From: Nostoc punctiforme PCC 73102
GTDB lineage: Bacteria > Cyanobacteriota > Cyanobacteriia > Cyanobacteriales > Nostocaceae
Length of the DNA stretch: 32,000 nucleotides
Assembly (NCBI RefSeq): GCF_000020025.1
Contig: NC_010631.1
Location: 300,001 to 332,000, forward strand
Reading direction: 5' to 3'
Within the stretch, counting starts at the first letter, position 1, and the number at the start of each line of letters is the position of its first letter. Below the pieces are notes generated by a model, which saw only the letters and a list, made by a program, of their open reading frames with translations, did not search any database and was not told the DNA's origin. This document shows positions 5,242 to 28,376 of the stretch, in pieces. The position numbers and the translations under genes were made by a program.

Positions 5242-5247
5242 TTTTAT

Positions 5248-8123: not shown

Positions 8124-8128
8124 AAACC

Positions 8129-9403
8129 TTACAAAGGATTGCCTAAATAAGGGAAGGTAGGAAGAAAGTTGGCATTATTAGGCCCAACATTATCGCTAGT
8201 CAGCCCCGGAATAATACCAGTAGAAATGCCTGTAACTGCATCACCAAAGACAACAGATGCTGTTACATCGATTACGTCATCTTTTGGTCTTCTACCACCA
8301 AAATTGTTGCCTAACTGAGTTCCAAAATAACTACCGCTAGGTTTAGAAAGGTCAGCCTGGATAACATCAGGAATCGCTACCGAGATAACTGCATCAGCTA
8401 TACCTTGAGGTCTACCGATCGCTTTAACAAAGGCTTGAATAAATTGTGATTGATTGCTAGCGTCTTGCGTTGGTGTCTGAAGATTACTATTATTATGAGC
8501 TTTAAAGTCCATAAAAAGTTCATTCAGGGCTGGAACTGCTAACCGCTCAATCTGAGCAAAATGATCCTTTCTGAGTCTAGGAGTTTTAACACTAGTTGTC
8601 ATCCAAGCACCAATCTTGCCACTACCAAGCAGTTTCCTGGGTAGCTCGACAATAATTGAGTGGACATTGAATGGGGCTAGGGTGTCTTTTGCTTGTCCAG
8701 GTGGTCTAAAGGTAAGAACTGTGAAAGGAGGACTGGGATTAGGCTGAAGGCTATAGTTCCGATCCGGGATGATTTTAAAGAACTGTTCCAAATCGAAAAA
8801 GAACGGGTCTTTGCGTGTCCCAACAAAGAACTTCATACCGTTAGATGCAGAGAATGTTTGGTTGAGTTGCCCTGTCCAAGTTACGGGAAGCAAAGCTGAC
8901 TCTGTTCCTACTGTGGTTGGACGATATGGGCCTCGGACTGTGACAGTTTGCTGTGATCCTTTACCATTTACATTAAATTGGAGTACAACATCTTCAATAC
9001 TGTCGCCAGTGTTATCAATCTTGAACTGATAAAGAACATTTGGATCGAATGGTCTTTTTTCACCAGAAACAATGAGAGGGTCGAAATCCATGACTAAGAC
9101 AACATTTTTGGGGTTTGTCGGACTCTCAAATACAAACAAATCAGTGAGATCCGCAGCTGTCAACTTAGTGGCAAGAAAAGTTGTGTCTTGGTGATCTGAA
9201 GCCAAAGCTTGAGGGGTGGCATAGATTAAGACTACGAGCAAGATAGCGACAAATGCCACTAGAGGACGAAAAAACCGAGTAGCTCCAGTCCAAGATAGCG
9301 ATCGCTTGATGGAAAGAAACCCCATATTTTGGACTGCTTTATCTATGGGGAACCTGCCTTCAGTTGGTATAAAAGAGGTAATACTCCAAGCATTTATTCT
9401 CAT
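8129..9403 (-). CDS. DUF4331-family secreted protein
   Basis: After a signal peptide ending QALA, the protein reads SDHQDT...DLTDLFVFESP...FDPNVLYQFKIDNTGDSIEDVVLQF. This matches the N-terminal DUF4331 pattern (SSHREAP...D.TD.Y.F...FDP...Y...IDN.GD..ED). An alternative start is the ATG at 9325 (MGFLSIKRS). The ATG at 9403 has the better SD (AAGAAGGG). Confidence 0.7.
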   Translation of the reverse strand: MRINAWSITSFIPTEGRFPIDKAVQNMGFLSIKRSLSWTGATRFFRPLVAFVAILLVVLIYATPQALASDHQDTTFLATKLTAADLTDLFVFESPTNPKNVVLVMDFDPLIVSGEKRPFDPNVLYQFKIDNTGDSIEDVVLQFNVNGKGSQQTVTVRGPYRPTTVGTESALLPVTWTGQLNQTFSASNGMKFFVGTRKDPFFFDLEQFFKIIPDRNYSLQPNPSPPFTVLTFRPPGQAKDTLAPFNVHSIIVELPRKLLGSGKIGAWMTTSVKTPRLRKDHFAQIERLAVPALNELFMDFKAHNNSNLQTPTQDASNQSQFIQAFVKAIGRPQGIADAVISVAIPDVIQADLSKPSGSYFGTQLGNNFGGRRPKDDVIDVTASVVFGDAVTGISTGIIPGLTSDNVGPNNANFLPTFPYLGNPL

Positions 9404-10130: not shown

Positions 10131-10463
10131 ATGTCAACTGGCGAGCGCAGTAAAAATAAAATTAAAGTGAAAATGAATATCACAGTAGATGTAACACCCA
10201 TTGCTGCGTTTAGGTGGAATGAAGAAAATGCCCAAAAACTCAGGGAGCTTAGAGAGAAAGCTGGATATAGTAGACAAAAGCTATCTGATGCTGTGGGAGT
10301 TTCTGTGGCTTATATTCAGCAGCTAGAGACTCCTCACGTCTTTATTAACAAACCAAAAAAACCAACTCAGATGACTGTTAGTACAGAAATTCTAGAGAAA
10401 CTTTGTGCTGCTTTAGATGGGGATATCACTTCACTTATTTGGAACATAGATTACAACAGTTAA
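10131..10463 (+). CDS. XRE-family helix-turn-helix transcriptional regulator
   Basis: LRELREKAGYSRQKLSDAVGVSVAYIQQLE is a typical Cro/CI-type HTH. The in-frame ATG at 10173 is an alternative start if transcription begins downstream of the TTGACA at 10103-10108. Confidence 0.8.
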   Translation: MSTGERSKNKIKVKMNITVDVTPIAAFRWNEENAQKLRELREKAGYSRQKLSDAVGVSVAYIQQLETPHVFINKPKKPTQMTVSTEILEKLCAALDGDITSLIWNIDYNS

Positions 10464-10472
10464 GAGAGTTAT

Positions 10473-10527
10473 TTACTACGCTCACCAGCTAAAATTGCTT
10501 GACAACCACTGGTGAGCGTAGTAATAT
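10473..10527 (+). promoter_or_regulatory. near-consensus sigma70-type promoter embedded in a 16-bp perfect inverted repeat (putative operator)
   Basis: TTGACA (10499-10504), a 17-bp spacer, then TAATAT (10522-10527). TTACTACGCTCACCAG (10473-10488) is the exact reverse complement of CTGGTGAGCGTAGTAA (10509-10524). A third copy of the box, ACTGGCGAGCGCAGTAA, lies at 10137-10153 (15/17 identical to 10508-10524). Confidence 0.55.
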
Positions 10528-10796: not shown

Positions 10797-10910
10797 AAAA
10801 AATACAACATGGCTGTACAGAGGGCACGATGAATCCAATATCTTCTCTACAGCTTTGTGCTGTCTGGTGTTTTGACATCAGTTAATAGGCTTTACCCCTG
10901 AACATTTTTA

Positions 10911-11040
10911 CTAGCGTGGCAAAACTAGCTAGAGCAAAAACTTAAACGTAGTAAATTCGTTATTATTGAAAATTTTGGTTTACCTATTTAGGCCTATTTC
11001 AATCATGAAAAATCTACTCTAGCGAGTTTTACCACTCTAG
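10911..11040 (+). mobile_element. 130-bp MITE-like element, copy A
   Basis: 121/130 identical, without gaps, to 25111-25240. The ~24-bp termini are inverted repeats (CTAGCGTGGCAAAACTAGCTAGAG / CTCTAGCGAGTTTTACCACTCTAG). It is flanked by a perfect 8-bp direct repeat CATTTTTA (10903-10910 and 11041-11048), consistent with a target-site duplication. Confidence 0.65.
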
Positions 11041-11178
11041 CATTTTTATAAGGCTTCGCCAATTCTAGAGTGAGAGTGTTGTGCTGAAAGCACAACGAAC
11101 TGACTAATAAAAATAGGACGATCGCCGTCCCTGGAAAGTCTGCGATCGCCTTTTTACCCATTTAAGAGGTATTTCCTA

Positions 11179-11976
11179 ATGATGACACAACTTTCAGCCC
11201 CTACGCTAACAAAAGATCCGTTAACCTCACAGGATCGCCAAATCATTGCAACCATCGTCAATCAGTCGGATTACTCAAAAGAGTGCAAGCCCGAAGATGT
11301 AGTGACTATCTGGATCAACAGTGATGATATCGTGTGGGTAAAAATGACCCACGGTTATGCTCGATACCACAAACAATCCTTCAAACGCGCAGTAGCAGAG
11401 GTAAAAGCGAGTCTTTCTGCTCCAGTAGAGCGCAATCACAAGGAAGAAAAGGAATTAAAACAAGCTTCTGAGAAAATTGGCTTGTTGGGTGATTGTGATT
11501 GGCTATCGTTGAGCGTCCAGTACCATTCTGATAAAGTAACCGGTCATGCTGCTTGTTATATTTCCCACAAGGCTCGAATATTAACCCCACTTGCGGAATG
11601 GGACTTCACCATACCGAAGTGGAATATGCCTGCTGCCATCTGCCCAGATTGTGATGGTCATGGCTGCGGTAACTGTGGGTATCGTGGTACTCGTGCAGAA
11701 GACTTGTGTACGCCAGTGGACGGCTACCGACTGACCTATGTGGGCAAGACTGACATCCAGACGGCTCACAACGTCTATCTAGATGGTGTATTCTTGGGCA
11801 TACTCTTCAAGGTCAGAAACCCCGATGAAATCTGGGAAAACGACCCCAAGACGTACTATTGGCAAGGTAGTAATGGCATGAAGTATTGGAGCCTCAAAGA
11901 GGCTGTAGAATCCTTTACTCAAGATGTGGTGACTAATAAAGTGCCACAGGTTCGTCAGGAGTTGGCGGTAGCGTAA
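11179..11976 (+). CDS. hypothetical protein with DnaJ-like CxxCxGxG zinc-finger motif
   Basis: 265-aa ORF with AAGAGG upstream of the ATG. CPDCDGHGCGNCGYRG lies at aa 155-170 (nt 11641-11688). I recognise no other family. Confidence 0.6.
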   Translation: MMTQLSAPTLTKDPLTSQDRQIIATIVNQSDYSKECKPEDVVTIWINSDDIVWVKMTHGYARYHKQSFKRAVAEVKASLSAPVERNHKEEKELKQASEKIGLLGDCDWLSLSVQYHSDKVTGHAACYISHKARILTPLAEWDFTIPKWNMPAAICPDCDGHGCGNCGYRGTRAEDLCTPVDGYRLTYVGKTDIQTAHNVYLDGVFLGILFKVRNPDEIWENDPKTYYWQGSNGMKYWSLKEAVESFTQDVVTNKVPQVRQELAVA

Positions 11977-12139: not shown

Positions 12140-12757
12140 ATGTTTCAAGCTTTACCAGAACCAGTTACTTTTGAAGAATTTCTAGAGTGGAAACCAGAAA
12201 ATGGCAGATATGAATTATATAAAGGAGCAATAGTAGAAATGCAGCCAACAGGAGAACATGAGCTAGTTAGAGCATTTCTGATTAGAGAACTCAATTTTGA
12301 GATTCGCAGGTTTAATCTAGCTTATACTATTCCTGGTCAAGTATTAGTCAAATCAGTTGATAAGAAATCTGGTTATATTCCAGACGTATTAGTATTGAAT
12401 CTTCCTAACTTGAGCAATGAACCGCTCTGGAAAAGAGCATCAACAGTTACTCAAGCAGAATCAATTCCATTAGCAGTGGAAGTTGTAAGTACAAATTGGC
12501 GTGATGATTATTTCCTGAAATTTGGTGAGTACGAGGAAATTGGGATTCCAGAATATTGGATTGTTGACTATGCTGCTCTTGGTGGAAAGCGATTTATTGG
12601 AAATCCTAAACAACCAACAATATCAGTTTATGCTTTAGTCGAAGGTGAATATCAAGTTACTCAATTTCGAGGAAATGACCGGATTCAATCACCTACTTTA
12701 AGAGAGCTAAATTTAACTGCTGAACAAGTTTTTCAAGCTGCTTTAGGAGAGTATTGA
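12140..12757 (+). CDS. Uma2-family (DUF820) PD-(D/E)xK-like endonuclease
   Basis: FEEFLEWKPENGRYELYKGAIVEM...GEHE...IPDVLVL...LAVEVVS...EYEEIGIPEYWIVD follows the Uma2 pattern found in multicopy in cyanobacteria. Confidence 0.8.
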   Translation: MFQALPEPVTFEEFLEWKPENGRYELYKGAIVEMQPTGEHELVRAFLIRELNFEIRRFNLAYTIPGQVLVKSVDKKSGYIPDVLVLNLPNLSNEPLWKRASTVTQAESIPLAVEVVSTNWRDDYFLKFGEYEEIGIPEYWIVDYAALGGKRFIGNPKQPTISVYALVEGEYQVTQFRGNDRIQSPTLRELNLTAEQVFQAALGEY

Positions 12758-12834: not shown

Positions 12835-13737
12835 ATGACCCAAAAATTTTATAGTCTCTTTGTTGAGCATTATCTCGAAGGCTTGCTTTCATCATTAGGT
12901 AGTGTAGAAGTTAGCGGCGTAATAACAGGTTCAGAAAGGCGGGGAATTGTTCTGTTTTTTCCGAAAGGGACAATTCAAACTGAAAGACACTCACTTGGAT
13001 TACTTGCTAAAGTTGCTCAAAGTGATTGTTCAATAAAAGTTTATTGTGAGCAAATTAGTGAAACAGAAGTCCGAAGCTGCCTACATAAACTTTTAAATGT
13101 CTTTTCAACTTTGAACTGTCGGGCATCGGCAGAAGGGAAAACTTTAGATGATGATAATTTACCTCGTTTGTGGATTTTAGTACCATCAGCTTCGCCAGAT
13201 TTACTCAAAGGTTTTGGCGCACAATTAGAGCTAAAAAACTGGACTACTGGAATATACATTCTGCCTAATGTTTTTAGAATTGCAATAGTAGCTATTAACC
13301 AACTACCAGTTACTTCAGAGACGCTATGGTTAAGGCTTTTGGGACGGGGAGTAATTCAAAAACAAGCAGTAAGTGAAATCATTGCACTTCCTTCATCCAA
13401 CCGACTACGCCAAAATGTTTTAGACATAGTTTACAGATGGCGTAGTAGTGTGATGACGCAGACAGATTTAACTGAAGATGACCAGGAGTTAATTATGAAT
13501 TTAACAGAAGCTTATCAAGAAGCAAGAGCGCAAGCTGTACAAGAGGGAGTAGAGCAAGAACGCCGTCAGGTTGTAGAAAACCTGTTGAGATTCCGGTTTG
13601 GTTCTGTGGATGAAGAACTCTCAAGAGTAGTCGATAATCTGTTGCAGTTAGCACTAGATGACTTTGCAAGATTTTTACTGGAATTGTCTAGTTTATCCCG
13701 TGAAGAGTTGTTAGCAAGATTTAATTCGCACGAATAA
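12835..13737 (+). CDS. DUF4351 domain-containing protein
   Basis: The C-terminal LTEAYQEARAQAVQEGVEQERRQVVENLLRFRFGSVDEELSRVVDNLLQLALDDFARFLLELSSLSREELLARF matches the cyanobacterial DUF4351 pattern. The N-terminal domain is unassigned. Confidence 0.65.
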   Translation: MTQKFYSLFVEHYLEGLLSSLGSVEVSGVITGSERRGIVLFFPKGTIQTERHSLGLLAKVAQSDCSIKVYCEQISETEVRSCLHKLLNVFSTLNCRASAEGKTLDDDNLPRLWILVPSASPDLLKGFGAQLELKNWTTGIYILPNVFRIAIVAINQLPVTSETLWLRLLGRGVIQKQAVSEIIALPSSNRLRQNVLDIVYRWRSSVMTQTDLTEDDQELIMNLTEAYQEARAQAVQEGVEQERRQVVENLLRFRFGSVDEELSRVVDNLLQLALDDFARFLLELSSLSREELLARFNSHE

Positions 13738-13800: not shown

Positions 13801-13873
13801 GGCTCTACGCTTCATATATCACAATTAAACGGCTGCGCCAATGCGAAAGTGAAAATACTTTTGGTACAAACAA

Positions 13874-14431
13874 ATGATCCCTCAAGAAACATCGGATTTA
13901 CTTGCTGCTTTAATGCGCCAAGAGGAACTACTCAAGCAATTAATCTCTTCAATCAATAAGCCAAAACTAGGATTGCACTCTGATGCAGGCAGTAGCAAAA
14001 TCTACTGCAATCGTCACAATGGTTCACTCTGGTATACCCTAAACAACAGTGAAGCGAGTGCGATTACCCAAACTGCCTTAACTGGATATCTAAAAGAACT
14101 GAAATTCGAGAAGTGTGAGCGCAGAGGAAAAGAAGTTTACAAGTTGCTGATTACAATTCAAGCAGACAGACCCTATATATTAGAAAGTGGGCATGATACT
14201 CACTTTGCTAAATCTGTATTAGCCGCGATCGCAACTTTGACCCCAGAACAATTGTATTCTCCCATCACACTACAGCCACAGCCAGGGACAACAGATGAAA
14301 ATGTGTTGTTCTGTCGCGTATGGGTTGGGTCGGAATTAATCATGGCATCCTACAACGAAGAAACGAACTGGCGTGAGGTCAGCAAGCAGGCAATTGCTGT
14401 AACCAAAGCTGCTCTTGAGATGGCGTTTTAG
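13874..14431 (+). CDS. hypothetical protein (185 aa)
   Basis: Long ORF co-oriented with its neighbours. No family recognised. A weak hairpin (14447-14467) follows the stop. Confidence 0.5.
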   Translation: MIPQETSDLLAALMRQEELLKQLISSINKPKLGLHSDAGSSKIYCNRHNGSLWYTLNNSEASAITQTALTGYLKELKFEKCERRGKEVYKLLITIQADRPYILESGHDTHFAKSVLAAIATLTPEQLYSPITLQPQPGTTDENVLFCRVWVGSELIMASYNEETNWREVSKQAIAVTKAALEMAF

Positions 14432-14658: not shown

Positions 14659-14943
14659 ATGACTATTACAATTGTTCATCCCAGCATCGAAAATCTACAA
14701 CCATTTTCTGACTTGTTTGACCTGGAAAAACTTTTGCAATCTGGGGGAATTCTACCGTGGCTTTTGGCTAACGGTTGGGATTACAGGGATGAATCTTGTT
14801 TGATTGCAAATATTGTTGATGAGTCTACAAGTCTAGATGAAGTTTGGGATTCTAAAGAGTTTGATTTTCAAGCGCTACCAGATGAATCAAAGGAAAAATT
14901 GAATCAGATTATGTGTGAAAAACTCTCCAGTCAGACTGATTGA
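14659..14943 (+). CDS. small strongly acidic hypothetical protein (94 aa)
   Basis: 19 D/E against 6 K/R by my count. No family recognised. Confidence 0.45.
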   Translation: MTITIVHPSIENLQPFSDLFDLEKLLQSGGILPWLLANGWDYRDESCLIANIVDESTSLDEVWDSKEFDFQALPDESKEKLNQIMCEKLSSQTD

Positions 14944-15009: not shown

Positions 15010-15279
15010 ATGGAAACAAATTTGATTAAAGTGTACGATGCAACACTATTAAGCTCATCGAAAGTTTACCAAATCGACGGTACGCTTTCACGATACTTGG
15101 GTGATGAAGGTACTATCCAACATCCACAGTATCTATTTTTGCCTTTGCCAAATCAAAGAAAAAAAGTCAGCTTTCGACTAAACCGAAACAAACTCATGAC
15201 TCGCTGTTATGAGGTCGAAGGTATGGTTTATGAAAAACCTGCGGTACAGGATAATTCACAGCAACTTCAACTATTTTAG
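15010..15279 (+). CDS. hypothetical protein (89 aa)
   Basis: ORF from the track, co-oriented with its neighbours. Another ORF follows 2 nt after its stop. Confidence 0.4.
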   Translation: METNLIKVYDATLLSSSKVYQIDGTLSRYLGDEGTIQHPQYLFLPLPNQRKKVSFRLNRNKLMTRCYEVEGMVYEKPAVQDNSQQLQLF

Positions 15280-15281
15280 CC

Positions 15282-15428
15282 ATGTCAATACATAAACCAC
15301 CAGTCATTAAAAGACATATCCGACTACAAAATGGCTCTACAAAAGTAATCTATAGAGCTACTACAGACATTCGCTCTCTTGAGAAATCACCACAAAGAAA
15401 GCTTCGCTTAATCGAAAGTGAAAAATAA
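15282..15428 (+). CDS. untracked 48-aa basic ORF
   Basis: MSIHKPPVIKRHIRLQNGSTKVIYRATTDIRSLEKSPQRKLRLIESEK. The ATG lies 2 nt after the upstream TAG (15277-15279). The stop (15426-15428) lies 18 nt before the next ATG (15447). The ORF is below the 60-aa cutoff of the track. Confidence 0.4.
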   Translation: MSIHKPPVIKRHIRLQNGSTKVIYRATTDIRSLEKSPQRKLRLIESEK

Positions 15429-15446
15429 TGATTGAGGTCAATAATC

Positions 15447-16520
15447 ATGGTACAAGCAATTGACAACCCTATTGTTGCAAATTTCCTAACTGATGCAGTA
15501 GTCGAGCGCCACAATTTCTCGCAATTAAATAAAACTCGCATCAGATTTCGTATTCAACTAAAGAAAAGTACAAAGTCTGCCGCTCCTAAATGGGCAGATG
15601 TTTTAAAAGCTGAAGTTTCTGAAATAGAATCAGACCTCGTTAAAGTCACAAATTCCGAAGTCGGTCTGCGAGGTATTAAGGTATTCAAAAAGCTGGATGA
15701 AGCTGCTGCCCAATTGAGGCAAGAGATTGCTTCGGTTCAAGAGTGGATGTCTGCTGATACTGGAGATTGGATTTGTCCGATTGATTTGGCTCCACTCGTT
15801 TGGAGTCAGTTAATCAATATCAGAGATAATATCGCTCCTGGATTGCGTAATCAATTAAAAGCTGATTACGAAGCGGGACTTCTTGATTATCAAGAGCGCA
15901 TTGATCAGTTCCTTTCACTTAACACCTGGGAATTAGCACAGGATAAGCAAGAGTCAGTCAAAGCCAACTTGCTAAGAGCATTTCCGACTCTGACCGATCT
16001 TGAAGACTATTTGCAAGTCGTTATTGGTCGTCCGGTAATTATCCCGGCACTGTCCGAACAACTGAACCAGCAACAAGCCAAATGTCTTGACCAGATTACC
16101 AAGTTCATTCAGCAGTATGACCAAAATCTGGAGCAAAGGCTACGGGAATCTGCTTTAGCTGGTGGTGAACAACTCGCCGCGCAACTCCTTGAAGAATTGA
16201 GCGACTGGGAGCCAGGACGTAAGCCAGTACAGTTCAAAAAAAAGATGGAAAAACACCTGATGAAAGTGCGGGTGTTACTGGCAAATGCCTCACCTGAAGC
16301 TGGCAGCAGTTTAGAACAGATGATGGCGCACTTAGATTCGATTGTCACCGACCCAGCGATTGAGTCGAAGAATCTTGGTTCTGATACGCGGAGTCAATTA
16401 CAGCAAAAAATGCAAGAGATCCGCATCAAGTTGTTAGATGAACAACGCAATCTACAATCACTTGCGACTGACGATGTGGGCTTGTCAAAAGCTACGGTGA
16501 TGTCGTTCAAGTTCAGGTAA
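15447..16520 (+). CDS. hypothetical, predicted mostly alpha-helical protein (357 aa from ATG 15447)
   Basis: The track ORF starts at TTG 15432. I prefer ATG 15447 (MVQAIDNPIV) because GAGG lies at 15434-15437. No family firmly recognised. Confidence 0.6.
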   Translation: MVQAIDNPIVANFLTDAVVERHNFSQLNKTRIRFRIQLKKSTKSAAPKWADVLKAEVSEIESDLVKVTNSEVGLRGIKVFKKLDEAAAQLRQEIASVQEWMSADTGDWICPIDLAPLVWSQLINIRDNIAPGLRNQLKADYEAGLLDYQERIDQFLSLNTWELAQDKQESVKANLLRAFPTLTDLEDYLQVVIGRPVIIPALSEQLNQQQAKCLDQITKFIQQYDQNLEQRLRESALAGGEQLAAQLLEELSDWEPGRKPVQFKKKMEKHLMKVRVLLANASPEAGSSLEQMMAHLDSIVTDPAIESKNLGSDTRSQLQQKMQEIRIKLLDEQRNLQSLATDDVGLSKATVMSFKFR

Positions 16521-16652: not shown

Positions 16653-17102
16653 ATGTCGCATTTCTCAACTGTTAAAACCAAGCTTGTTAACCGTGAATGT
16701 CTGGTACAAGCTTTACAAGATTTGAAACTGAATCCGCAAGTTCACGAAACAGCACAGCCACTAAAAGGATACTACGGTGATTCTCAAGGACAAAGCGCTG
16801 AAATTATCGTATCTGGTCGCACCATAAAAGCCCGTGCAGACATCGGATTTAAGTGGAGTCAGTCAAGCGGCGTGTACGAGATAATCCACGACAGTTACGA
16901 AACAGTTCCGAAGCTGGGCAAAGACTTTTTCAGCAATAAACTAATGCTGGCTTACGGTAAACGTTTGGTAAAAGCTAAAGCTGCCGAGTTACAAGAAAAG
17001 TTCGGGGAATGTGCGATCGCTGAAGAAACCAACGGTACAGTGCAAACCCTACGGCTGACGTTTGCCGGACATCAAGAAGTTAAACAGTACGTGAGGAGAT
17101 AA
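16653..17102 (+). CDS. DUF1257 (Ycf35-like) protein
   Basis: From ATG 16653 (GGAG 8 nt upstream) the protein starts MSHFSTVKTKLVNRECLVQALQDLKL, the typical DUF1257/Ycf35 N-terminus. The track start at 16632 is a TTG. Confidence 0.75.
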   Translation: MSHFSTVKTKLVNRECLVQALQDLKLNPQVHETAQPLKGYYGDSQGQSAEIIVSGRTIKARADIGFKWSQSSGVYEIIHDSYETVPKLGKDFFSNKLMLAYGKRLVKAKAAELQEKFGECAIAEETNGTVQTLRLTFAGHQEVKQYVRR

Positions 17103-17104
17103 AC

Positions 17105-17317
17105 ATGGAACGTTCAGTTTTGATTCATTTTGACGACGCTACAGGTGAAGTTCGAGTGGAGGCTAAAGGGTTCGAGGGTTTGAGTTGTTTATCGGCTACG
17201 CAACCATTTGAAGAGGCACTTGGAGTTGTCAGCGAGAGCGATCGCACCTACAAGGATGAAGCCCAAACCCAACAGCTTCGGGCTACGAACAGTAATCAAA
17301 CACGTTTGCGTCAGTAA
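17105..17317 (+). CDS. DUF2997-like small protein
   Basis: VLIHFDDATGEVRVEAKGFEGLSCLSATQPFEEALGVV fits the DUF2997 pattern (I.pDG.V...V.G..G..C...T..le..LG). The ATG lies 2 nt after the upstream TAA, and GAGGAG sits within the end of the upstream gene. Confidence 0.7.
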   Translation: MERSVLIHFDDATGEVRVEAKGFEGLSCLSATQPFEEALGVVSESDRTYKDEAQTQQLRATNSNQTRLRQ

Positions 17318-17321
17318 TTAG

Positions 17322-17360
17322 TCATCAGTTACCAGTTTTAACTCGGCTGGTAACTGCTGA
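17322..17360 (+). promoter_or_regulatory. stem-loop in the DUF2997 / AAA+ intergenic spacer
   Basis: TCATCAGTTACCAG (17322-17335) pairs 13/14 with CTGGTAACTGCTGA (17347-17360) across an 11-nt loop. The core 10 bp are perfect. No U-tract. Confidence 0.45.
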
Positions 17361-17407
17361 TCATAAAGGCTTCGCCATTTCATAAGTGAAATATTTGAAT
17401 AATTGAC

Positions 17408-19030
17408 ATGGAACTCTCAAATCTCCTCTCCACGCTCGATTCACAAATCCCGATCGCCGCAGTTGATGTCCTGTCCCCCGATGAAGCAACTATCATTCAG
17501 TGGTTAACTACAGAGGCATCGAGCAAGCTCTCATGTCCAGTGTTCTTCTGGAATCTGGGAGTATCAACCTTAGAGCAATGCCTGATTGCGGCAGATGGTG
17601 GACTGGTGTTTAAGCCAGTTGCAGAGTACAAAAGACCTCCACAGGCTGACCCACTGCTATTTGTATTTGACTACATTGCTAACTTTAGCGGTCATGGTGT
17701 ATTTATCCTTGGAGATATTCACCCTTTCATTGCTAAGAATTCACTCCAATTGAGTTGGGAGATTTTATCCAAAGTTAAAAACCTTTACCACAGGTTAAAA
17801 CCCACAGATAAACGCATCGTACTCTTAGGACAGAACATACAATTACACGAATCTCTAATCAGATTGATTCCTTATTGTGAAGTCCCTTTACCTAGTATTG
17901 ACCAAATACTACTTCATATCACTTCTTATTTGCATGACCTACAACAGTCAGCTAGGGAGCAAGAATTAAGTTTTACTGTTACGCTTGAAAATGCTGAATT
18001 TGAAACTCTTTCTCGTGCAGCGCTGGGTTTAACCCTGGAGGAGATTAGTGATTTTCTTCGCTTAACAGTCAAAGAAAACTTAACTAATGATGGTGTCGTC
18101 GTTGACGCTGATTTTATCCCCAAAGCCGTCGAGTACAAAACTCGGCTACTGTCTCAAATGGGTATCGAGTTGGGTAAGCCAGCTACCATTCCTTTTGGCG
18201 GTTTGGATCTACTGCGCGAGTGGCTGATGAGGCGGCGGCGACTATTCACACAAGAGGCGCGAAGTCTTAGCTTACCGCAACCCAAAGGGTTGTTACTTGC
18301 AGGGCCTCCAGGTACGGGTAAAACGAGTGTCGCTAAGAACATCGCTAATATTCTCAATTTGCCATTACTCCAGCTAGACATTGCTTCCCTTTTGGGTAGT
18401 CTGGTCGGTGAGTCTGAGGGGAATGTCAGACGGGCTTTGAAAACTGCCGAGGCGATCGCACCCTGCATCTTATGGGTAGACGAGATAGAAAAAGCACTTT
18501 CGGGAACTGGTGACACGAGTGGAGTCTCACAGAGGATTCTGGGCAATATTCTTACGTTTATGTCGGAATCAACTAGTGGGGTGTTTGTCGTGGCAACTTG
18601 CAATGACCCCTCTGCGTTACCGTCTGAACTCAAAAGGAAAGGACGTTTTGATGAAAATTTCTTTGTTGATCTTCCCACAGAACCAGAACGAGTCCAGATT
18701 CTAGGGATTCATCTGCAACGTTTTGGCATTCACCTGGAATCGGAGTACCTCGAAGCGATCGCAGCTTCCACCGCGAAATTCTCCGGCGCAGAACTGGAAA
18801 CCCTTGCTTCAGAAGCGGCACTGCTGGCATTCGATGAGGATAGACCGCAGCAGGTCACGCTTGCTGACCTCGAAACCTGTCGTCAAACCATTACCCCGCT
18901 TGCCATCCAGGATGCGGCGGCTGTAGAGCGTATGCAAGCGTGGGCATCCACCGCGCGACGGGCTAGTAGTCCCGCACAAGCGGCGAAAACTCAATCTCTC
19001 AGGACTGCTAAGTTCAGAAACATGAACTGA
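17408..19030 (+). CDS. classical AAA+ ATPase with a degenerate N-terminal AAA-like domain
   Basis: Walker A GPPGTGKT (aa 299-306), Walker B CILWVDEIE, and second region of homology VVATCNDPSALPSELKRKGRFD. The N-terminal ~260 aa lack a P-loop but have a Walker-B-like VFILGDIHPF and a lid-like LSRAALGLTLEEISDFL. Confidence 0.9.
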   Translation: MELSNLLSTLDSQIPIAAVDVLSPDEATIIQWLTTEASSKLSCPVFFWNLGVSTLEQCLIAADGGLVFKPVAEYKRPPQADPLLFVFDYIANFSGHGVFILGDIHPFIAKNSLQLSWEILSKVKNLYHRLKPTDKRIVLLGQNIQLHESLIRLIPYCEVPLPSIDQILLHITSYLHDLQQSAREQELSFTVTLENAEFETLSRAALGLTLEEISDFLRLTVKENLTNDGVVVDADFIPKAVEYKTRLLSQMGIELGKPATIPFGGLDLLREWLMRRRRLFTQEARSLSLPQPKGLLLAGPPGTGKTSVAKNIANILNLPLLQLDIASLLGSLVGESEGNVRRALKTAEAIAPCILWVDEIEKALSGTGDTSGVSQRILGNILTFMSESTSGVFVVATCNDPSALPSELKRKGRFDENFFVDLPTEPERVQILGIHLQRFGIHLESEYLEAIAASTAKFSGAELETLASEAALLAFDEDRPQQVTLADLETCRQTITPLAIQDAAAVERMQAWASTARRASSPAQAAKTQSLRTAKFRNMN

Positions 19031-19037
19031 TGATAAG

Positions 19038-19067
19038 GCGATGCCTGCGGCGGGCTGCGCCTACGCC
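19038..19067 (+). repeat. short dispersed repeat copy (GCGATGCCTGCGGCGGGCTGCGCCTACGCC), intergenic
   Basis: Begins 8 nt after the AAA+ stop. It shares the core with 25291-25320 (-) and 5018-5044 (-). Confidence 0.55.
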
Positions 19068-19177
19068 CTCTGATTCTATGGGGACAACCACAATTTTCAT
19101 TCTGTCAAAATATTTCATCACAATACCAATTTCGAGAGGCAATGCCCAGAAATTAACGGGTTAATTGGGTAAAGAAC

Positions 19178-19738
19178 ATGGAAATCTATTTAGTCTTTGT
19201 TAACGCGATCCAAAACAATAATAAATTCTGGAGTGCCAAAGTTGAGGATAGCAACTTAACAGTCCAATGGGGACGTGTTGGTTATCAGGCACAAACCAAA
19301 GTCCACACATTAAGAAATTATCAACAGGCTGTTAACAAATTTCATAACTTAGTCGCTGAGAAAAAAGCTAAGGGCTACAGCGAAACTCAGCCACAAATGG
19401 ATGGCTTACGCAGTCTTGGAGACATCCGACGAGCAATACATCTATTAAACATCATCCGCCCTTGTATTGCTAATCATATCTACCATGATGGCTATATTAG
19501 CGCCCTAAATGAGTATCTGAAAATCGTTCCCACACCTTTGGGAATGCAGATAGATTATCACGGGATTTACCGCAGTGTAAGAGATGTTGACTATCAAATG
19601 GAACTGCTTAATTCTCTGTTAGCCGCACCTGTACCACAAGTTGCTGTGGTAGCTGCTGCTTCTACAAAAGAACCAACTGTAGAATCCAAGGTAGTCAGTC
19701 TCAAGACTATCAGTAAGAACTTCTGGCGACATTTGTAA
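19178..19738 (+). CDS. stand-alone WGR-domain protein
   Basis: The N-terminus NNKFWSAKVEDSNLTVQWGRVGYQAQTKVH...AVNKFHNLVAEKKAKGY is the WGR signature. The C-terminal ~100 aa are unassigned. Confidence 0.8.
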   Translation: MEIYLVFVNAIQNNNKFWSAKVEDSNLTVQWGRVGYQAQTKVHTLRNYQQAVNKFHNLVAEKKAKGYSETQPQMDGLRSLGDIRRAIHLLNIIRPCIANHIYHDGYISALNEYLKIVPTPLGMQIDYHGIYRSVRDVDYQMELLNSLLAAPVPQVAVVAAASTKEPTVESKVVSLKTISKNFWRHL

Positions 19739-19796
19739 ATTAGCTTGTTGTAAAGTATTGTAGCCAATTTACTATAGCGATGCGGATTAATTAAAT

Positions 19797-19831
19797 ATAT
19801 CCCCCAGATGCACATCGCATCTGGGGGATAT
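19797..19831. terminator. bidirectional rho-independent terminator between convergent genes
   Basis: ATATCCCCCAGATGC (19797-19811) pairs perfectly with GCATCTGGGGGATAT (19817-19831) across a 5-nt loop. TTTT follows on the plus strand and T-rich sequence follows on the minus strand. Confidence 0.75.
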
Positions 19832-19852
19832 TTTCAACTTCCATCTCTACAA

Positions 19853-20179
19853 TTATTGTTCTTGTCCTTGTCCCCGTTCTTGTCCCCGTTCTTGTCCTTG
19901 TCCTTGTCCTTGTCCTTGTCCTCGTCTTTGTCCTTGTCCTCGCGGCATACAGGCTTCAAGAGCTTGGCGATTATTTGCAGCTTCGACACAGCTCTTTCTT
20001 TGCTGTATCTCAGAGAGCCGCGCACTAATACGTTTGAGGATTTCGTCTTTGTGCTGCTGAAATTGCTGTCCGTTACCCTGATTTTGGCTATCTGATGGGG
20101 GGTTGGGGCTACTTTGTCCTAAAGCTAGACTTGGGGAAGCTAAGATCGCGACAACCGCCAAAAAGCAATAATTTTTCAT
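19853..20179 (-). CDS. small secreted protein with C-terminal (R/E)GQ repeat tail
   Basis: I prefer ATG 20179 (MKNYCFLAVVAILASPSLALG signal peptide, GAGG 5 nt upstream) over the track start at 20200. The C-terminus reads PRGQGQRRGQGQGQGQGQERGQERGQGQEQ. Confidence 0.6.
   Translation of the reverse strand: MKNYCFLAVVAILASPSLALGQSSPNPPSDSQNQGNGQQFQQHKDEILKRISARLSEIQQRKSCVEAANNRQALEACMPRGQGQRRGQGQGQGQGQERGQERGQGQEQ
19856..19942. repeat. tandem hexanucleotide repeat (CTTGTC/CTTGTCC variants)
   Basis: About 14 imperfect units that encode the GQ/RGQ tail on the minus strand. Confidence 0.8.
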
Positions 20180-20580
20180 AGTAGCCTCTAGTAAAAACAA
20201 AAGTATTCATCTATTTAAGCTATAGCTTTATCGTGATAAATATTACTGCTTAATGCTTCAGTCTTTGTACTAGTAATCTTAGGTACTTTTAATTTATCAG
20301 ACATCAGCATTTATAAGAGGTTTTAGAACAAGAAACTAGTGAGCGTTTCAGCAATGATTTTCCTCACTTGTGGGCTTGGTTTGCATAAGGTTTGGCACTA
20401 TTTCTGATTACCTACACCAAAATGTTGGGACTACCAGATTTTTTCCCGTGAGCTTATTACACTACAACATCTTTTCTGGGTGAAAAAATTATGTAAATTT
20501 AACCACATCACCCTAACGAAAGTTTACAATATAATTACTGAAACTAATCTAGCTATAACCAACAGGCTTTGGTTTGACCT

Positions 20581-21983: not shown

Positions 21984-24900
21984 ATGGCGAATATCATTGG
22001 AACCAACGGTAACGATACTCTAGTAGGCAGTTACGAAGCGGACACGATTAATGGAGAAGCAGGTAACGATACCATCACAGGTAACGAAGGTGATGACACC
22101 CTAACTGGTGGTGGTGGCAAAGATCAGTTTGTTTACAACTATTACACCGGAATTGATATCATCACGGATTTTGGCGGTATAGGCAAAGGCGTAAATCCCT
22201 CGGCAGGAGTCATCGCCGAAGTGGATACACTACAATTCCAAGGTGCTGCCTTGACTGACCGAAATATGCTGCTGACGCAGAATGGAAAGAATCTGGAAAT
22301 CACATTTGAAAATGTGCTTGATTCCAAAGTCATCCTGGAAAACTTTGCCCTGGAAAACCTGGAAAACCTGAGCAAATCTACCGGAGCCAGTGTAGACTTG
22401 GGCAATATAGAGTTTGATGGGCAAACTAGCATCACCGACAGCTTTGATGTTTTCAATGCCAACTCCACCCAAAGCACTATCTTCAACAAGAACACTGTTA
22501 CCTTCCTTAACGACCTCTCCAATAATGTTAGTGGCTTTGACAACTCAGATGATGTGATCAATGGTCAAGGTGGAAATGACCGCATTGACGGCTTGAGTGG
22601 CGACGACATACTGAGGGGTGGTGCAGGGAATGATACTCTTATTGGTGGTGCAGGGAATGATACTCTCATTGGTTATCAAGGCAATAATGCACTCATTGGT
22701 GACATTGGTGAAGACTATTTGAATGTTGATACTTCAACAGGCGATAACACTCTCAATGGTGGCATTGGTGACGATACTTTAAATGCTAGGGGAACAACAG
22801 GCAATAATTCCCTTTCTGGGGGCGATGGCAATGATTATCTTTCCACCTCTTCTTTTCCTATTTACAGCGGATACAGCTATATTGCCTCTTCAAGCAATAA
22901 CACCCTTGACGGTGGTGCTGGTAACGATACATTGAATGCTGAGTCTCCATCCGGCGATAACTTACTCTCTGGAGGCGATGGCAATGATTATCTCTCTACC
23001 TCTGGTACTAAAAGTGATAATGGGCAGCTTAATTTTACCTCAGAGGGTAATAACACCCTCGATGGTGGTGCTGGTGACGATCGCTTGTATGCTGATATTT
23101 CAACGGGTAATAACTTACTGTCTGGAGGCGATGGCAATGATACTCTCTCTACCTCTGGCACTTACACAAGAAACTCTTTTATCGTACCATCCTCTGGCAA
23201 TAACACGCTCAATGGCGGCGCTGGTGACGATTACTTGTATGCTAGCGCTTCAACGGGCAGTAACTTTTTCTCTGGGGGCGATGGCAATGATTCTTTCTCT
23301 CTAAGCACCATATCTTCAGATGGTTCCCCCTCTAACTCTTATTTAGTGACTCAAACGGTAGACGGAGGTAAGGGTGACGATTTGTTATCTTTCAATTTGT
23401 TACCTTTTCATGACAGCGACAGCAATGTTGCTGGAGGGATCATAACGACATTCAATCCAACTACAAACAAGGGAACAATTACTGCTGGTACGTATGGGGT
23501 TAATTACAAGAATATCGAAAAATTAAATATCTCAGGTACAGCCGACGATGACTTGATTTTGGGGAGCAATGGAAACGATACACTCTCCACAGGCAATGGT
23601 GGCAAAGATACGATAGATGGGGGTAAGGGTGACGATGTAATATCTATTGATTACAGTAATGCTACAAGCAAAATCATAACAACATTCAATGCCACTACTA
23701 ATACTGGCTTAATTACCGCAGGTACTTATCAGATTAGTTACAAGAATATTGAACGATTAAATATCACAGGTACAGCCTACGATGACAACATTTTGGGCAA
23801 CAATGGCAATGATACGCTCTCTACAGGCAGTGGTGGCAATGATACGATCAATGGCGGTCAAGGCGACGATATACTGTCAGTTGATTACTACACTAATACA
23901 ACAGGTATTACAACGACATACAATACCACTACTAATGCTGGAGTAATTACAGCAGGCAGTAATCGGGTTAGTTACAAGAATATCGAACGATTAGATATCT
24001 CTGGCACAGTCTCCGATGACTATATTATAGGCAACAATGGCAACGATACGCTTTCCGGGGGCTATGACGGTAATGATACGATTATTGGCGGTGCAGGAAA
24101 TGATGTCGTGATAGGTGGGAAGGGTAATGACATTTTAACTGGTGGTGTCGGCAATGATAAATTTGTTTACGATCTTTTAGAGAGCAACTATGATACTGGT
24201 ACTGATATAATCACAGATTTCGGTGGCATTGGTAAAGATTCAAATCCCTCACAAGCGGTAATTGCCTCCCTAGACACTTTGGAATTTATAGACAACAGTG
24301 GCTTCCGTCTATTTAGCGCTCAAAATCTGCAATTAACTCAAAATGGTAACAATTTAGAAATTACCTTTGAAGATTTATTTAATAGCAGTAATAGCAAAGT
24401 CATTCTCCAAAATTTCCAACTAGAAAACCTCGATGGTGAGAATATTCTATTTCCTGGACAAACCACCATCACCAACAGTATTGATGTGTTTGATGCTAAT
24501 TCCACTCAAACTAGCCTGTTGAACAAAAACACTGTTACCTTCCTCAATGACCTCAACAACAACATTACGGGTTTTGACAATTCCAATGATGTGGTGAATG
24601 GTCAAGGGGGTGACGATATCATCAACGGCTTAAGTGGTAACGATCTTTTGAGAGGTAATGCGGGAAATGATACTCTCATTGGTGGTGCGGGAAATGATAC
24701 CCTTTACGGTGGTGCTGGCAATGATCTCCTCTATGGTGGCGCTGGCAGTGATATTCTCACGGGTGACAACGGTAACGATATCTTTGCTTTTGCTGCTGGG
24801 GAAGGTACTGATACGATTACTGATTTCACTAAAAATAATGATTTGATTGGACTGTATGGTGGTTTGAGCTTTGGGCAATTAAGTTTCTCAGGTAACAATA

Positions 24901-24989
24901 TCCTGGTGACTTCTACGAATGAGATTTTGGCAACGCTGACTGGCATTAATACTACGACGCTGACTGCTGTTAATTTCGTCACGCTTTAA
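21984..24989 (+). CDS. RTX-type calcium-binding repeat protein (1001 aa)
   Basis: Dozens of GGxGxDxL/I nonapeptides (GGAGNDTLIGGAGNDTL and similar), several layers of internal duplication, and a C-terminal uncleaved secretion-signal-like tail (ILATLTGINTTTLTAVNFVTL). Confidence 0.9.
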   Translation: MANIIGTNGNDTLVGSYEADTINGEAGNDTITGNEGDDTLTGGGGKDQFVYNYYTGIDIITDFGGIGKGVNPSAGVIAEVDTLQFQGAALTDRNMLLTQNGKNLEITFENVLDSKVILENFALENLENLSKSTGASVDLGNIEFDGQTSITDSFDVFNANSTQSTIFNKNTVTFLNDLSNNVSGFDNSDDVINGQGGNDRIDGLSGDDILRGGAGNDTLIGGAGNDTLIGYQGNNALIGDIGEDYLNVDTSTGDNTLNGGIGDDTLNARGTTGNNSLSGGDGNDYLSTSSFPIYSGYSYIASSSNNTLDGGAGNDTLNAESPSGDNLLSGGDGNDYLSTSGTKSDNGQLNFTSEGNNTLDGGAGDDRLYADISTGNNLLSGGDGNDTLSTSGTYTRNSFIVPSSGNNTLNGGAGDDYLYASASTGSNFFSGGDGNDSFSLSTISSDGSPSNSYLVTQTVDGGKGDDLLSFNLLPFHDSDSNVAGGIITTFNPTTNKGTITAGTYGVNYKNIEKLNISGTADDDLILGSNGNDTLSTGNGGKDTIDGGKGDDVISIDYSNATSKIITTFNATTNTGLITAGTYQISYKNIERLNITGTAYDDNILGNNGNDTLSTGSGGNDTINGGQGDDILSVDYYTNTTGITTTYNTTTNAGVITAGSNRVSYKNIERLDISGTVSDDYIIGNNGNDTLSGGYDGNDTIIGGAGNDVVIGGKGNDILTGGVGNDKFVYDLLESNYDTGTDIITDFGGIGKDSNPSQAVIASLDTLEFIDNSGFRLFSAQNLQLTQNGNNLEITFEDLFNSSNSKVILQNFQLENLDGENILFPGQTTITNSIDVFDANSTQTSLLNKNTVTFLNDLNNNITGFDNSNDVVNGQGGDDIINGLSGNDLLRGNAGNDTLIGGAGNDTLYGGAGNDLLYGGAGSDILTGDNGNDIFAFAAGEGTDTITDFTKNNDLIGLYGGLSFGQLSFSGNNILVTSTNEILATLTGINTTTLTAVNFVTL

Positions 24990-28040: not shown

Positions 28041-28376
28041 ATGAAAATTGAAATCCAAGGAAAAGATGCGGTAAAAGCTACAGAGGAACTGTTAGCGATT
28101 GAGGGAATAGAGGGAAGCTATCAGACAATTGATGAAGTAGAACGGGAAGGAACAGTAGCCACAATTGCAACCATAATTGGGATTGTCAGTGGCACATTTG
28201 CGATCGCAGAGAGTCTCCACAAGTGGAAGGAAAAATACCAAAAATCGCTATACGACCCAACAGGTGCAAGGATTGAGAAAGTTTTGATTGTCACACCTGA
28301 TAATCATCGGCTGCTGCTCAAAGACGCAACAGTAGAGCAAATCCAAGCGATTTTGGAAAAATCTAAGAAAAAATGA
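28041..28376 (+). CDS. small single-pass membrane protein coupled to the CHAT-NTPase gene
   Basis: 111 aa with a central hydrophobic helix (VATIATIIGIVSGTFAIA). Its stop overlaps the start of the next gene in an ATGA at 28373-28376. Confidence 0.55.
   Translation: MKIEIQGKDAVKATEELLAIEGIEGSYQTIDEVEREGTVATIATIIGIVSGTFAIAESLHKWKEKYQKSLYDPTGARIEKVLIVTPDNHRLLLKDATVEQIQAILEKSKKK

Follow-up and report, generated by a model that had tools for sequence, protein, structure and literature searches.

The four genes between positions 16,653 and 19,738 of the 32,000-nucleotide stretch of Nostoc punctiforme PCC 73102 DNA analysed here (positions 300,001 to 332,000 of NC_010631.1, hereafter the window) encode a DUF1257 protein of the Ycf35 family, a DUF2997 protein, a Ycf46-like AAA+ protein and a WGR protein. 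Judged from sequence comparison, this module is most likely related, as a mobile version, to the orphan Ycf46/Ycf35/Ycf34 set and likely acts on proteins bound to plasmid DNA. The more specific reading preferred here, tentatively and with somewhat less than even confidence, is that of an ATP-driven protein unfoldase or segregase with dedicated partners, which would be tethered to DNA and serve the plasmid rather than host defence. An earlier note had described a four-gene module in an accessory block. The genes are indeed real and co-directional (all on the + strand), but they do not stand alone, since they form the 3′ end of a co-directional cluster of ~9.7 kb; the setting of an XRE gene, a repeat resembling a miniature inverted-repeat transposable element (MITE) and Uma2/DUF4351 genes was likewise correctly described, but it is plasmid backbone and not an accessory block. 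The genes ycf35, ycf46 and ycf34 are long-standing orphans of cyanobacteria and red-lineage plastids, and the physical linkage of Ycf35-type, DUF2997 and Ycf46-type proteins across phyla, plasmids and viruses, with Ycf34 or other iron-sulfur proteins added in some lineages, makes of separate unknowns one testable machine, namely a putative Cdc48/Pex6-like unfoldase with a dedicated adaptor pair. The domain calls of the earlier note hold for the four proteins listed below, as all Pfam matches exceed the gathering cut-offs.

16653-17102, + strand: DUF1257/Ycf35 family, 149 amino acids (aa); Pfam PF06868 62.1 bits (cut-off 22.2), 6.5e-17; phrog_20456.
17105-17317, + strand: DUF2997, 70 aa; Pfam PF11211 45.4 bits (cut-off 24.1), 7.5e-12.
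17408-19030, + strand: Ycf46-like AAA+, 540 aa; Pfam AAA (PF00004) 110.9 bits, 7.7e-32; AAA_lid_3 37.6 bits; phrog_8638 2.6e-96; degenerate D1 at aa ~1-270, active D2 at aa ~285-500, then lid.
19178-19738, + strand: WGR protein, 186 aa; Pfam WGR 74.1 bits, 1e-20; WGR domain at aa 1-72.

From sequence and structural model, the AAA protein is predicted to be a compact type-II member of the Cdc48/Pex6 kind, in which D1 is nucleotide-dead and D2 catalytically complete. The classical AAA module recognized earlier is present with GPPGTGKT (299-306), ILWVDEIE (354-361) and RKGRFD, at positions invariant in 92 homologues. In these homologues, the Walker A/B residues G299, G302, G304, K305, D358 and E359 are invariant, as are sensor-1 N399 and the arginines R410 and R413 of the second region of homology (SRH), which were aligned to Cdc48 D1/D2; the C-terminal module is closest to Cdc48/p97/VAT. 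The N-terminal half had been suspected to be an AAA-like domain without a P-loop, a view that HHalign corroborates by matching it to the C-terminal half (probability 95.6%, E = 1e-8); the match begins after Walker A and includes Walker B, the SRH and the lid, with the P-loop absent from the N-half. In agreement, the AlphaFold2 model (predicted local distance difference test, pLDDT, 86.8) superposes at full length on tandem D1-D2 AAA proteins, Foldseek aligning it to Pex1/Pex6, p97/Cdc48, Rix7 and Drg1 over 550-600 columns with template modelling (TM) scores of 0.65-0.69. It is this tandem D1-D2 evidence, together with the P-loop-less N-half, that points to a type-II protein with a dead D1.

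At 50% identity, at least 124 clusters belong to the AAA family as defined by its N-domain, and almost all of them are 490-600 aa long. The UniRef name of the window protein is 'ycf46', and its N-domain weakly matches a Crocosphaera protein so named (E ~5e-4); the copy compared is, however, a mobile-element one and no canonical Ycf46, and this Crocosphaera 'ycf46' was accordingly rejected as a core gene. Homology to the Synechocystis operon slr0373-slr0376, raised in the earlier note, is plausible through the AAA name and the N-domain match, and is unverified for the two small Synechocystis genes.

The DUF1257 and DUF2997 genes are joined at the junction GTGAGGAGATAA-AC-ATG (GAGGAG-A-TAA-AC-ATG), where the GAGGAG lies within the end of the upstream gene, its TAA occupies 17100-17102 and the next ATG begins at 17105, as expected from the translational coupling proposed earlier. 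The start of DUF1257 is placed at ATG 16653 and not at the upstream TTG 16632, as the N-terminal MSH motif found throughout the family starts at the former. This motif, described for Ycf35 (PMC13060386), opens the N-terminus MSHFSTVKT, in which H3, T6 and T9 are invariant among 60 sequences. The AlphaFold2 model of DUF1257 (pLDDT 87.8) has no structural relative in PDB or among the viral models of BFVD. DUF2997 contains a single invariant Cys, located within a G-x-x-G-x-x-C motif of the family alignment. The two genes form an obligate pair: DUF2997 adjoins DUF1257 in 77 of 78 Nostocales loci and in 79 of 80 IMG/VR loci, all found through DUF1257, and the two genes usually overlap in the viral set. 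The AAA gene is found in none of these 80 IMG/VR loci, which agrees with the conserved DUF2997-ycf35-fed7 cluster of cyanobacteria, itself AAA-less (PMC4284462); an open reading frame (ORF) with a ferredoxin-like CxxCxxCxxxCP motif was found within 600 nucleotides (nt) of the pair in 0/80 viral loci. More broadly, 317 IMG/VR contigs, which may be phages or host fragments, carry a DUF2997-DUF1257 pair without AAA, with DUF2997 first and often overlapping.

The WGR assignment of the earlier note is upheld by the Pfam score (74.1 bits) and by PDB matches to 2ra8 and the PARP3 WGR. Beyond this domain, the WGR family profile matches the WGR of PARP2 and then its helical domain (HD), in the PARP order (76-148 versus 275-345; 'NEYLKIVPTPLGM' versus 'NEFYTRIPHDFGL'), with a whole-sequence E = 0.0014, and PARP fragments lacking a WGR are still matched by the profile at ~0.03. 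Comparison of Nostocales with Leptolyngbya shows that the C-terminal region is conserved around Y-L-x-[IL]-[VI]-P-x-P-[LV]-G-M; on the orthologue from plasmid pLBX of Leptolyngbya boryana, the Pfam PARP_reg model gives E = 0.0046, below the cut-off. A PARP catalytic (ADP-ribosyltransferase) domain was found neither in the WGR protein, which ends at residue 186, nor in its neighbours. These profile matches are suggestive of the sensor half of a PARP (WGR plus helical domain) minus the catalytic domain, and such a PARP-like sensor without an enzyme domain on the plasmid version would indicate a DNA-linked role.

The window proteins are identical to the N. punctiforme PCC 73102 entries ACC85104-ACC85114, one of which has the plasmid locus tag Npun_AF249 (= ACC85104), and the replicon is a plasmid of 354,564 bp. 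A second PCC 73102 replicon (254,918 bp) holds an AAA protein 96% identical to that of the window. Megablast against PLSDB recovers the region from ~10,015 or 11,047 to ~19,740, with 84-88% nucleotide identity, from at least 20 large Nostoc plasmids; homology to other plasmids stops at ~19740. The gene order on these plasmids is invariant (XRE, p265, variable segment, p94, p89, p357/362, DUF1257, DUF2997, AAA, WGR). The cluster may provide a backbone function to the large plasmids of Nostoc, which are poorly understood. The genes upstream of the four are listed below.

10131-10463, + strand: XRE-family HTH regulator (Pfam HTH_3 7.8e-9), at the 5′ edge of the conserved cluster.
11179-11976, + strand: p265 (Npun_AF249), conserved cluster protein, syntenic in plasmids.
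12140-12757, + strand: Uma2 (Pfam 1e-31), part of the variable insert within the cluster.
12835-13737, + strand: DUF4351-like gene (UniRef name DUF4351), variable insert.
13874-14431, + strand: p185, small conserved cluster protein, replaced by a DUF5895 protein on some plasmids.
14659-14943, + strand: p94, small conserved cluster protein.
15010-15279, + strand: p89, small conserved cluster protein.
15432-16520, + strand: p362, best-conserved cluster protein, always directly 5′ of DUF1257 and confined to Nostocales.

Gene linkage was assessed in 80 Nostocales loci (close copies) retrieved through DUF1257, with only those having enough flank being counted. The association with the upstream genes at 15010-16520, which the earlier note had wished to see examined, is strong: p362 is intact in 63/69 evaluable loci. 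DUF2997 is intact in 77/78 and the AAA gene in 60/68, the eight others being truncated, partly by insertion sequence (IS) elements, while WGR is intact in 48/62, partial in five and absent in nine. The linkage is stronger when seen from the WGR side than from the DUF1257 side, since nearly all full-length plasmid matches to the window WGR lie 3-6 kb 3′ of a p362 gene on the same strand, including those on pCC7120alpha and on a T. variabilis ATCC 29413 plasmid; conversely, p362 occurs on 36 plasmids and WGR lies 3-6 kb downstream in ~27. The true start of p362 is likely ATG 15447, which gives 357 aa. The protein is ~93-97% identical in most of the related loci, has no family or structure match (Pfam, PDB) and no homologue at distant trio loci (the trio being DUF1257, DUF2997 and AAA).

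All six cluster genes tested are under purifying selection, at synonymous divergences (dS) of ~0.4-1.2. The median ratios of nonsynonymous to synonymous divergence (dN/dS) are 0.056 for p362, 0.077 for AAA, 0.096 for p89, 0.114 for DUF1257, 0.129 for DUF2997 and 0.162 for WGR, which is the least conserved protein of the set. Up to five cluster copies occur per genome, and copies from the same assembly have diverged as much as copies from different species (dS 0.6-0.85, dN/dS 0.07-0.19). Co-resident copies are thus old and individually maintained, a situation into which a replicon-serving role would fit more easily than a redundant trans-acting host role.

The association with mobile elements suspected earlier extends well beyond Nostoc, for the window is plasmid DNA and the trio is also found on plasmids and phages across several phyla, with PHROGs families existing for each of its members. 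It is present on small Planktothrix and Geminocystis plasmids that carry their own Rep and Par genes. The trio, or AAA with DUF2997, is further found in a Crocosphaera-like element with ParAB, PemK and Sipho_Gp157, on a Bacillus thuringiensis megaplasmid, on a Clostridium chromosome, on an environmental chromosome that also encodes FHA proteins and another AAA, in a marine element and in Rhodobacter phage RcTiptonus. Among 79 viral contigs with the AAA gene, DUF2997 is detected in 35 and DUF1257 in 22 (same strand, within 5 kb), and WGR in none. Phage Corndog (L006 5875-13101) has in one gene array a Ycf46-like AAA (gp96), a ParB-like nuclease (gp90) and Ku (gp87; Pfam Ku 1.4e-28).

The partners that recur at these loci are of two kinds. 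DNA-handling partners comprise the WGR protein, which Nostocales have and Leptolyngbya has independently, beside an AAA protein only ~30% identical, a recurrence that supports the view of the earlier note that WGR is a genuine partner; a ComEA-like helix-hairpin-helix (HhH) protein in Firmicutes; a RecA-like protein in the marine element; a Pol III delta gene that overlaps the AAA stop codon in a Cloacimonetes contig; and the Ku protein and ParB-like nuclease of the Corndog array. Iron-sulfur (Fe-S) partners comprise Fer4_12/radical-SAM-like proteins, Fed7 in the core DUF2997-ycf35-fed7 cluster (PMC4284462) and a bona fide Ycf34 on pLBX, where DUF1257, DUF2997, AAA, Ycf34 and WGR lie in a single array (L014 6261-9720). 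A macrodomain (O-acetyl-ADP-ribose deacetylase) gene and holA are found a few kb upstream of this array. In 127 red-algal plastid genomes, the presence and absence of ycf34, ycf35 and ycf46 are correlated (PMC5940233). The synteny on plasmids thus agrees with this plastid profile in indicating one functional set, which suggests that the orphan genes ycf34, ycf35 and ycf46 work together.

In the preferred reading of a plasmid-serving unfoldase, the AAA protein would assemble as a double-ring hexamer, and a DUF1257-DUF2997 heterodimer would dock on the inactive D1 ring as an adaptor or regulator, in the manner of p97/Pex6 cofactors. The WGR-HD protein, or HhH or RecA-like proteins elsewhere, would tether the machine to the element's DNA, or activate it there, at nicks, ends or replication intermediates, and D2 would then extract or unfold a DNA-bound protein. 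Candidate substrates may include an initiator or relaxase to be recycled, or host nucleoid or restriction factors to be evicted, and the outcome would be to promote plasmid establishment, replication or stable inheritance. Since Fe-S partners (Ycf34, Fer4_12, Fed7) occur elsewhere, it is suggested that the ancestral system was redox-gated. A bolder and rather doubtful version sees in the module a mobile 'DNA-protein segregase', the bacterial counterpart of chromatin extraction by p97, in which a PARP-derived WGR-HD would sense nicks or ends and hand protein to an unfoldase gated by Ycf35/DUF2997 and, ancestrally, by Fe-S. If this were true, ycf46, ycf35 and ycf34 would encode a single redox-gated unfolding machine that plasmids and phages have repeatedly co-opted to clear host proteins, possibly defence factors, off their DNA.

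Several observations weigh against a DNA-tethered, plasmid-serving unfoldase. The HD similarity is weak, as it falls under the Pfam cut-off and the separate stretches of the PDB search are not individually significant, and WGR is optional, being absent from five loci with an intact AAA gene and from all 79 viral AAA loci. The DUF partners too are undetectable in 42 of these 79 loci and in some chromosomal ones. Pore loop 1 of D2 reads L-V-G (S-L-V-G-E-S-E; family consensus G-L-V-G) instead of aromatic-hydrophobic-Gly, so that vigorous threading is not assured; Cdc48 D1 carries M-A-G, however, and the L-V-G loop is therefore not disqualifying. Several plasmid copies are truncated by IS elements, so that replicon survival does not depend on the cluster; there are also chromosomal copies, and part of the co-resident pairs come from metagenome-assembled genomes with possible strain mixing. 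In the window, the upstream neighbours are DUF4331, TPR and DsbD/NicO genes and the cluster does not lie beside replication genes. Finally, no experimental or expression data for the plasmid cluster genes were found in the searchable literature, where the tags Npun_AF249-259 (extrapolated from Npun_AF249 = ACC85104) are not mentioned either.

The direction in which the earlier note had leaned, namely NTPase-based anti-phage or anti-plasmid defence, is distinctly unlikely. The WGR protein would here sense foreign or broken DNA, and the AAA protein with its partners would cause growth arrest or destroy invader protein. Such sensor-plus-NTPase logic fits the gene content, and the carriers of the cluster are mobile elements, on which defence systems congregate: BREX adjoins it in pNsp_c, CRISPR type III-B and other systems are found on the same plasmids, and Ssp/Dnd-like genes adjoin it in two small plasmids. 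The AAA core also scores against the IetA and TRIP13 models. However, the PADLOC and NCBIfam matches concern the generic AAA core only (IteA_antiphage, 79 bits against a cut-off of 510) and were rejected as evidence of membership, neither the small proteins and WGR nor any other protein of the cluster matches a PADLOC model, and Pfam reveals no effector-type domain in the cluster, be it of a nuclease, protease, TIR, Sir2, toxin or membrane kind. The trio is moreover common in phage and viral contigs, and the cluster is a rigidly syntenic plasmid backbone, not a variable island. Three to five diverged copies per cell, each constrained, are unexpected for redundant trans-acting immunity.

This multiplicity of diverged copies is also hard to explain as host-benefit cargo, which is what the module would be as a plasmid paralogue of a Ycf46-Ycf35(-Ycf34) stress system, providing redox-gated proteostasis under host light, oxidative or nutrient stress and having no DNA-specific role. 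This explanation is rather unlikely, although it can draw on the 'ycf46' UniRef name and the N-domain match to a protein so named, on the identity of DUF1257 with Ycf35 by its MSH motif (PMC13060386), on the recurrent Fe-S partners and on the correlated ycf34/ycf35/ycf46 distribution in plastid genomes (PMC5940233). The core ycf46 operon, of three genes, is induced by stress, ppGpp and RpaB (bioRxiv 10.1101/2025.07.21.665879; PMC7496141), and the DUF2997-ycf35-fed7 cluster is conserved (PMC4284462). Core relatives such as these, whose prevalence in most cyanobacteria the earlier note had named as the finding that would speak against its view, exist, yet the copy in the window represents a mobile lineage of its own, to which a WGR gene is linked. 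Against the stress explanation, the partners added on mobile elements are DNA-handling ones (WGR-HD, HhH, RecA-like, Pol III delta), the XRE-headed cluster lies among phage- and plasmid-replication-type genes (BRO, MT-A70, DnaB, CyRepA1), and relatives abound in viruses of non-photosynthetic hosts. An unconventional Par/Rep module, which would ensure partition or replication control of the replicon itself, is highly unlikely and was rejected: the small trio plasmids have separate Rep (CyRepA1, DUF3987) and ParA/ParB/ParG genes, truncated copies persist on otherwise intact plasmids, most PCC 7120 plasmids are devoid of the cluster (pCC7120alpha being the sole PCC 7120 record among the matches listed), and neither a ParA, ParB, ParM or Rep domain (Pfam) nor a repeat array was found in the cluster. 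What speaks for it is the occurrence of about one copy per large plasmid, the divergence of copies on co-resident plasmids, as expected of incompatibility determinants, the location beside rep genes in two plasmids (pCC7120alpha, pNPM1) and the pNPM3-like record CP026684, which begins at the p362 gene. A conjugative leading region was also considered and rejected, as no relaxase or type IV secretion system was seen in the ~60 kb examined in pNPM1 on that side of the cluster which is divergent (rep/DnaB).

Comparison with known systems helps to delimit the Nostoc module. With the Ycf46/Ycf35/Ycf34 set (slr0373-slr0374-slr0376 = Synpcc7942_0416-0418; DUF2997-ycf35-fed7), it has in common an AAA protein with a degenerate N-domain, an MSH-bearing DUF1257 and DUF2997, and the homologous pLBX array includes a Ycf34 gene. 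It differs in being plasmid-borne and multi-copy, in belonging to a larger XRE-headed cluster with the Nostocales-specific p265, p89 and p357, and in having the putative WGR-HD protein. With Cdc48/p97/VAT, Pex1-Pex6, Rix7/NVL and Drg1/AFG2, the AAA protein has in common the tandem D1-D2 fold and a classical-clade D2 with Walker A/B, sensor-1 and SRH arginines, and, as in Pex6, its D1 is inactive. Dependence on small cofactors, as in these type-II AAA+ unfoldases, is plausible by analogy. Unlike them, the Nostoc protein is bacterial and encoded by a mobile element, has no N-terminal cofactor-binding domain, no P-loop in D1 and an L-V-G pore loop 1, and its partners DUF1257 and DUF2997 are unrelated to UBX, Ufd1 and Npl4. 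The WGR domain recalls PARP1/2/3 in being followed directly by a stretch that partially and weakly resembles their helical domain, down to the ...IP-x-x-[FL]-G-[ML] motif; the Nostoc protein lacks the ADP-ribosyltransferase domain, so that any output would have to pass through partner proteins.

Like IetAS/IteA and the TRIP13-HORMA pair of CBASS, the module has a classical AAA core carried by a mobile element, and its logic would be that of a small partner plus NTPase. In contrast to both, it has a tandem D1-D2, is represented in phages and stays far under the family cut-offs (79 bits against 510 for IteA); it has neither the IetS protease of the former nor the HORMA partner or CD-NTase operon genes of the latter (PADLOC, Pfam). 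On plasmid pTRESU01 of Treponema succinifaciens (L015 6186-8341), an AAA protein that belongs to the family of the Nostoc one (N-domain hidden Markov model, 5.6e-68) follows a gene for a 4Fe-4S protein and lies among VgrG/Pvc8 and baseplate V genes of an extracellular contractile injection system (eCIS). This locus is devoid of DUF1257 and DUF2997, and the Nostoc cluster has no injection-system genes nearby. The context fits a generic protein-unfolding or loading role, and the match hints that eCIS-associated ATPases may fall within or near the Ycf46-like family. Lastly, the rhizobial gene LPU83_pLPU83a_0137, like that of the window, encodes a small plasmid-backbone WGR protein; it is co-induced with conjugative DNA-transfer genes (PMC13055273), which counts in favour of the DNA-linked reading. 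Only the WGR is similar (~31% identity over ~65 aa), its context is traG plus a thermonuclease gene, and it has no AAA or DUF partners.

The XRE gene is kept with the cluster on several plasmids, and a divergent HTH gene occupies the same edge in pCC7120alpha and pNPM1. For p265, no significant match was obtained in Pfam, PHROG, PADLOC or PDB, and permissive Pfam matches are noise (DarA_N, E = 0.08). The variable segment consists in the window of the Uma2 and DUF4351 insert and p185, and on other plasmids of a DUF5895 protein instead; a Uma2 gene is detected in just 3/80 related loci, and the PDB search gave nothing significant for the DUF4351-like protein. The flanks vary from plasmid to plasmid: in pCC7120alpha, the cluster is divergent from CyRepA1, DUF1392 and HTH genes, with CyRepA1 adjoining, and the divergent side of pNPM1 comprises HTH, BRO, MT-A70, DUF5131, DnaB and DUF1392 genes. 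These positions next to CyRepA1 and DnaB also speak for the plasmid-serving reading. With the cluster beside CyRepA1, pCC7120alpha of Anabaena PCC 7120 offers a tractable model.

The non-coding features of the cluster are the following.

10473-10527, + strand: inverted repeat plus promoter, with perfect 16-bp arms at 10473-10488 (TTACTACGCTCACCAG) and 10509-10524 (CTGGTGAGCGTAGTAA).
10904-11046, strand not assigned: MITE-like repeat of ~140 bp, just 5′ of the cluster.
11050-11073, 13829-13852, 15398-15421 and 17366-17389, + strand: 24-nt motif AAGGCTTCGCCAATTCGAAAGTGA, preceding p265, p185, p362 and AAA.
17321-17361, + strand: hairpin in the 90-nt spacer (17318-17407) between DUF2997 and AAA.
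19797-19831, strand not assigned: closing hairpin, perfect, 15-16 bp.

The 16-bp inverted repeat brackets the -35 element of a near-consensus promoter (TTGACA-17-TAATAT, 10499-10527) right after the XRE stop codon, and repeat and promoter are a candidate operator-promoter pair for the downstream cluster. The MITE-like repeat recurs on several other Nostoc plasmids, in copies 93-97% identical that lie at sites without annotation, and its insertion at 10904-11046 accounts for the sharp break of homology at 11047, exactly where three related loci begin to match. The motif AAGGCTTCGCCAATTCGAAAGTGA has no match in the 32-kb window, on either strand, beyond the four listed. In 780 kb of related loci, it was found 115 times on the cluster strand and never on the opposite one, at fixed distances from the p265, p185, p362 and AAA starts. 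It contains a GGC-TTC-GCC mini-hairpin, which in the p362 version reads AGC-TTC-GCT and looks like a compensatory change; the motif is probably a shared regulatory or RNA-level signal.

The stem-loop reported earlier in the spacer preceding the AAA gene is present, with 13 of 14 pairs formed and one mismatch instead of a full 14-bp stem; its minimum free energy is -25.4 kcal/mol (z = -3.6 versus shuffles). In many related plasmids (pNPM1, pCC7120alpha and loci L084-L090), this spacer is replaced by a gene of ~85 aa (MxxLPKEY...IVIKANTEGLCVL...); counterparts of the spacer are found in L003 (16898-17181) and L096 (12321-12578), and both forms are common. The five loci with an intact AAA gene and no WGR all belong to more divergent lineages and have the ~85-aa gene. 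The perfect hairpin of ~15 bp said to close the block was found again at 19797-19831 and looks like a terminator for both strands. Rfam searches of the cluster returned sub-threshold chance matches only, and no iteron- or centromere-like repeat array was seen within it. Just past the terminator hairpin, a 12-nt tandem repeat (TTGTCC[CC/TT]GTTC...) occupies 19844-19945, within ORFs 19808-20095 (+) and 19853-20200 (-); its minus strand encodes the GQ/ERGQ-repeat tail of a protein of 115 aa whose N-terminus is hydrophobic and resembles a signal peptide.

Other genes of the window are plasmid cargo that is not conserved with the cluster, namely the DUF4331-TPR-DsbD/NicO-like operon at 4450-9403 (-) and a gene at 21984-24989 (+) for a 1001-aa RTX calcium-binding repeat protein. 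STAND-type NTPases, typical cyanobacterial conflict or signalling proteins unrelated to the cluster, flank the region at 1860-4040 and 28041-31270; they are a 726-aa AAA_16/NB-ARC-like protein and a 965-aa CHAT-NB-ARC-GUN4 protein, the latter preceded by a 111-aa ORF with overlapping stop and start codons.

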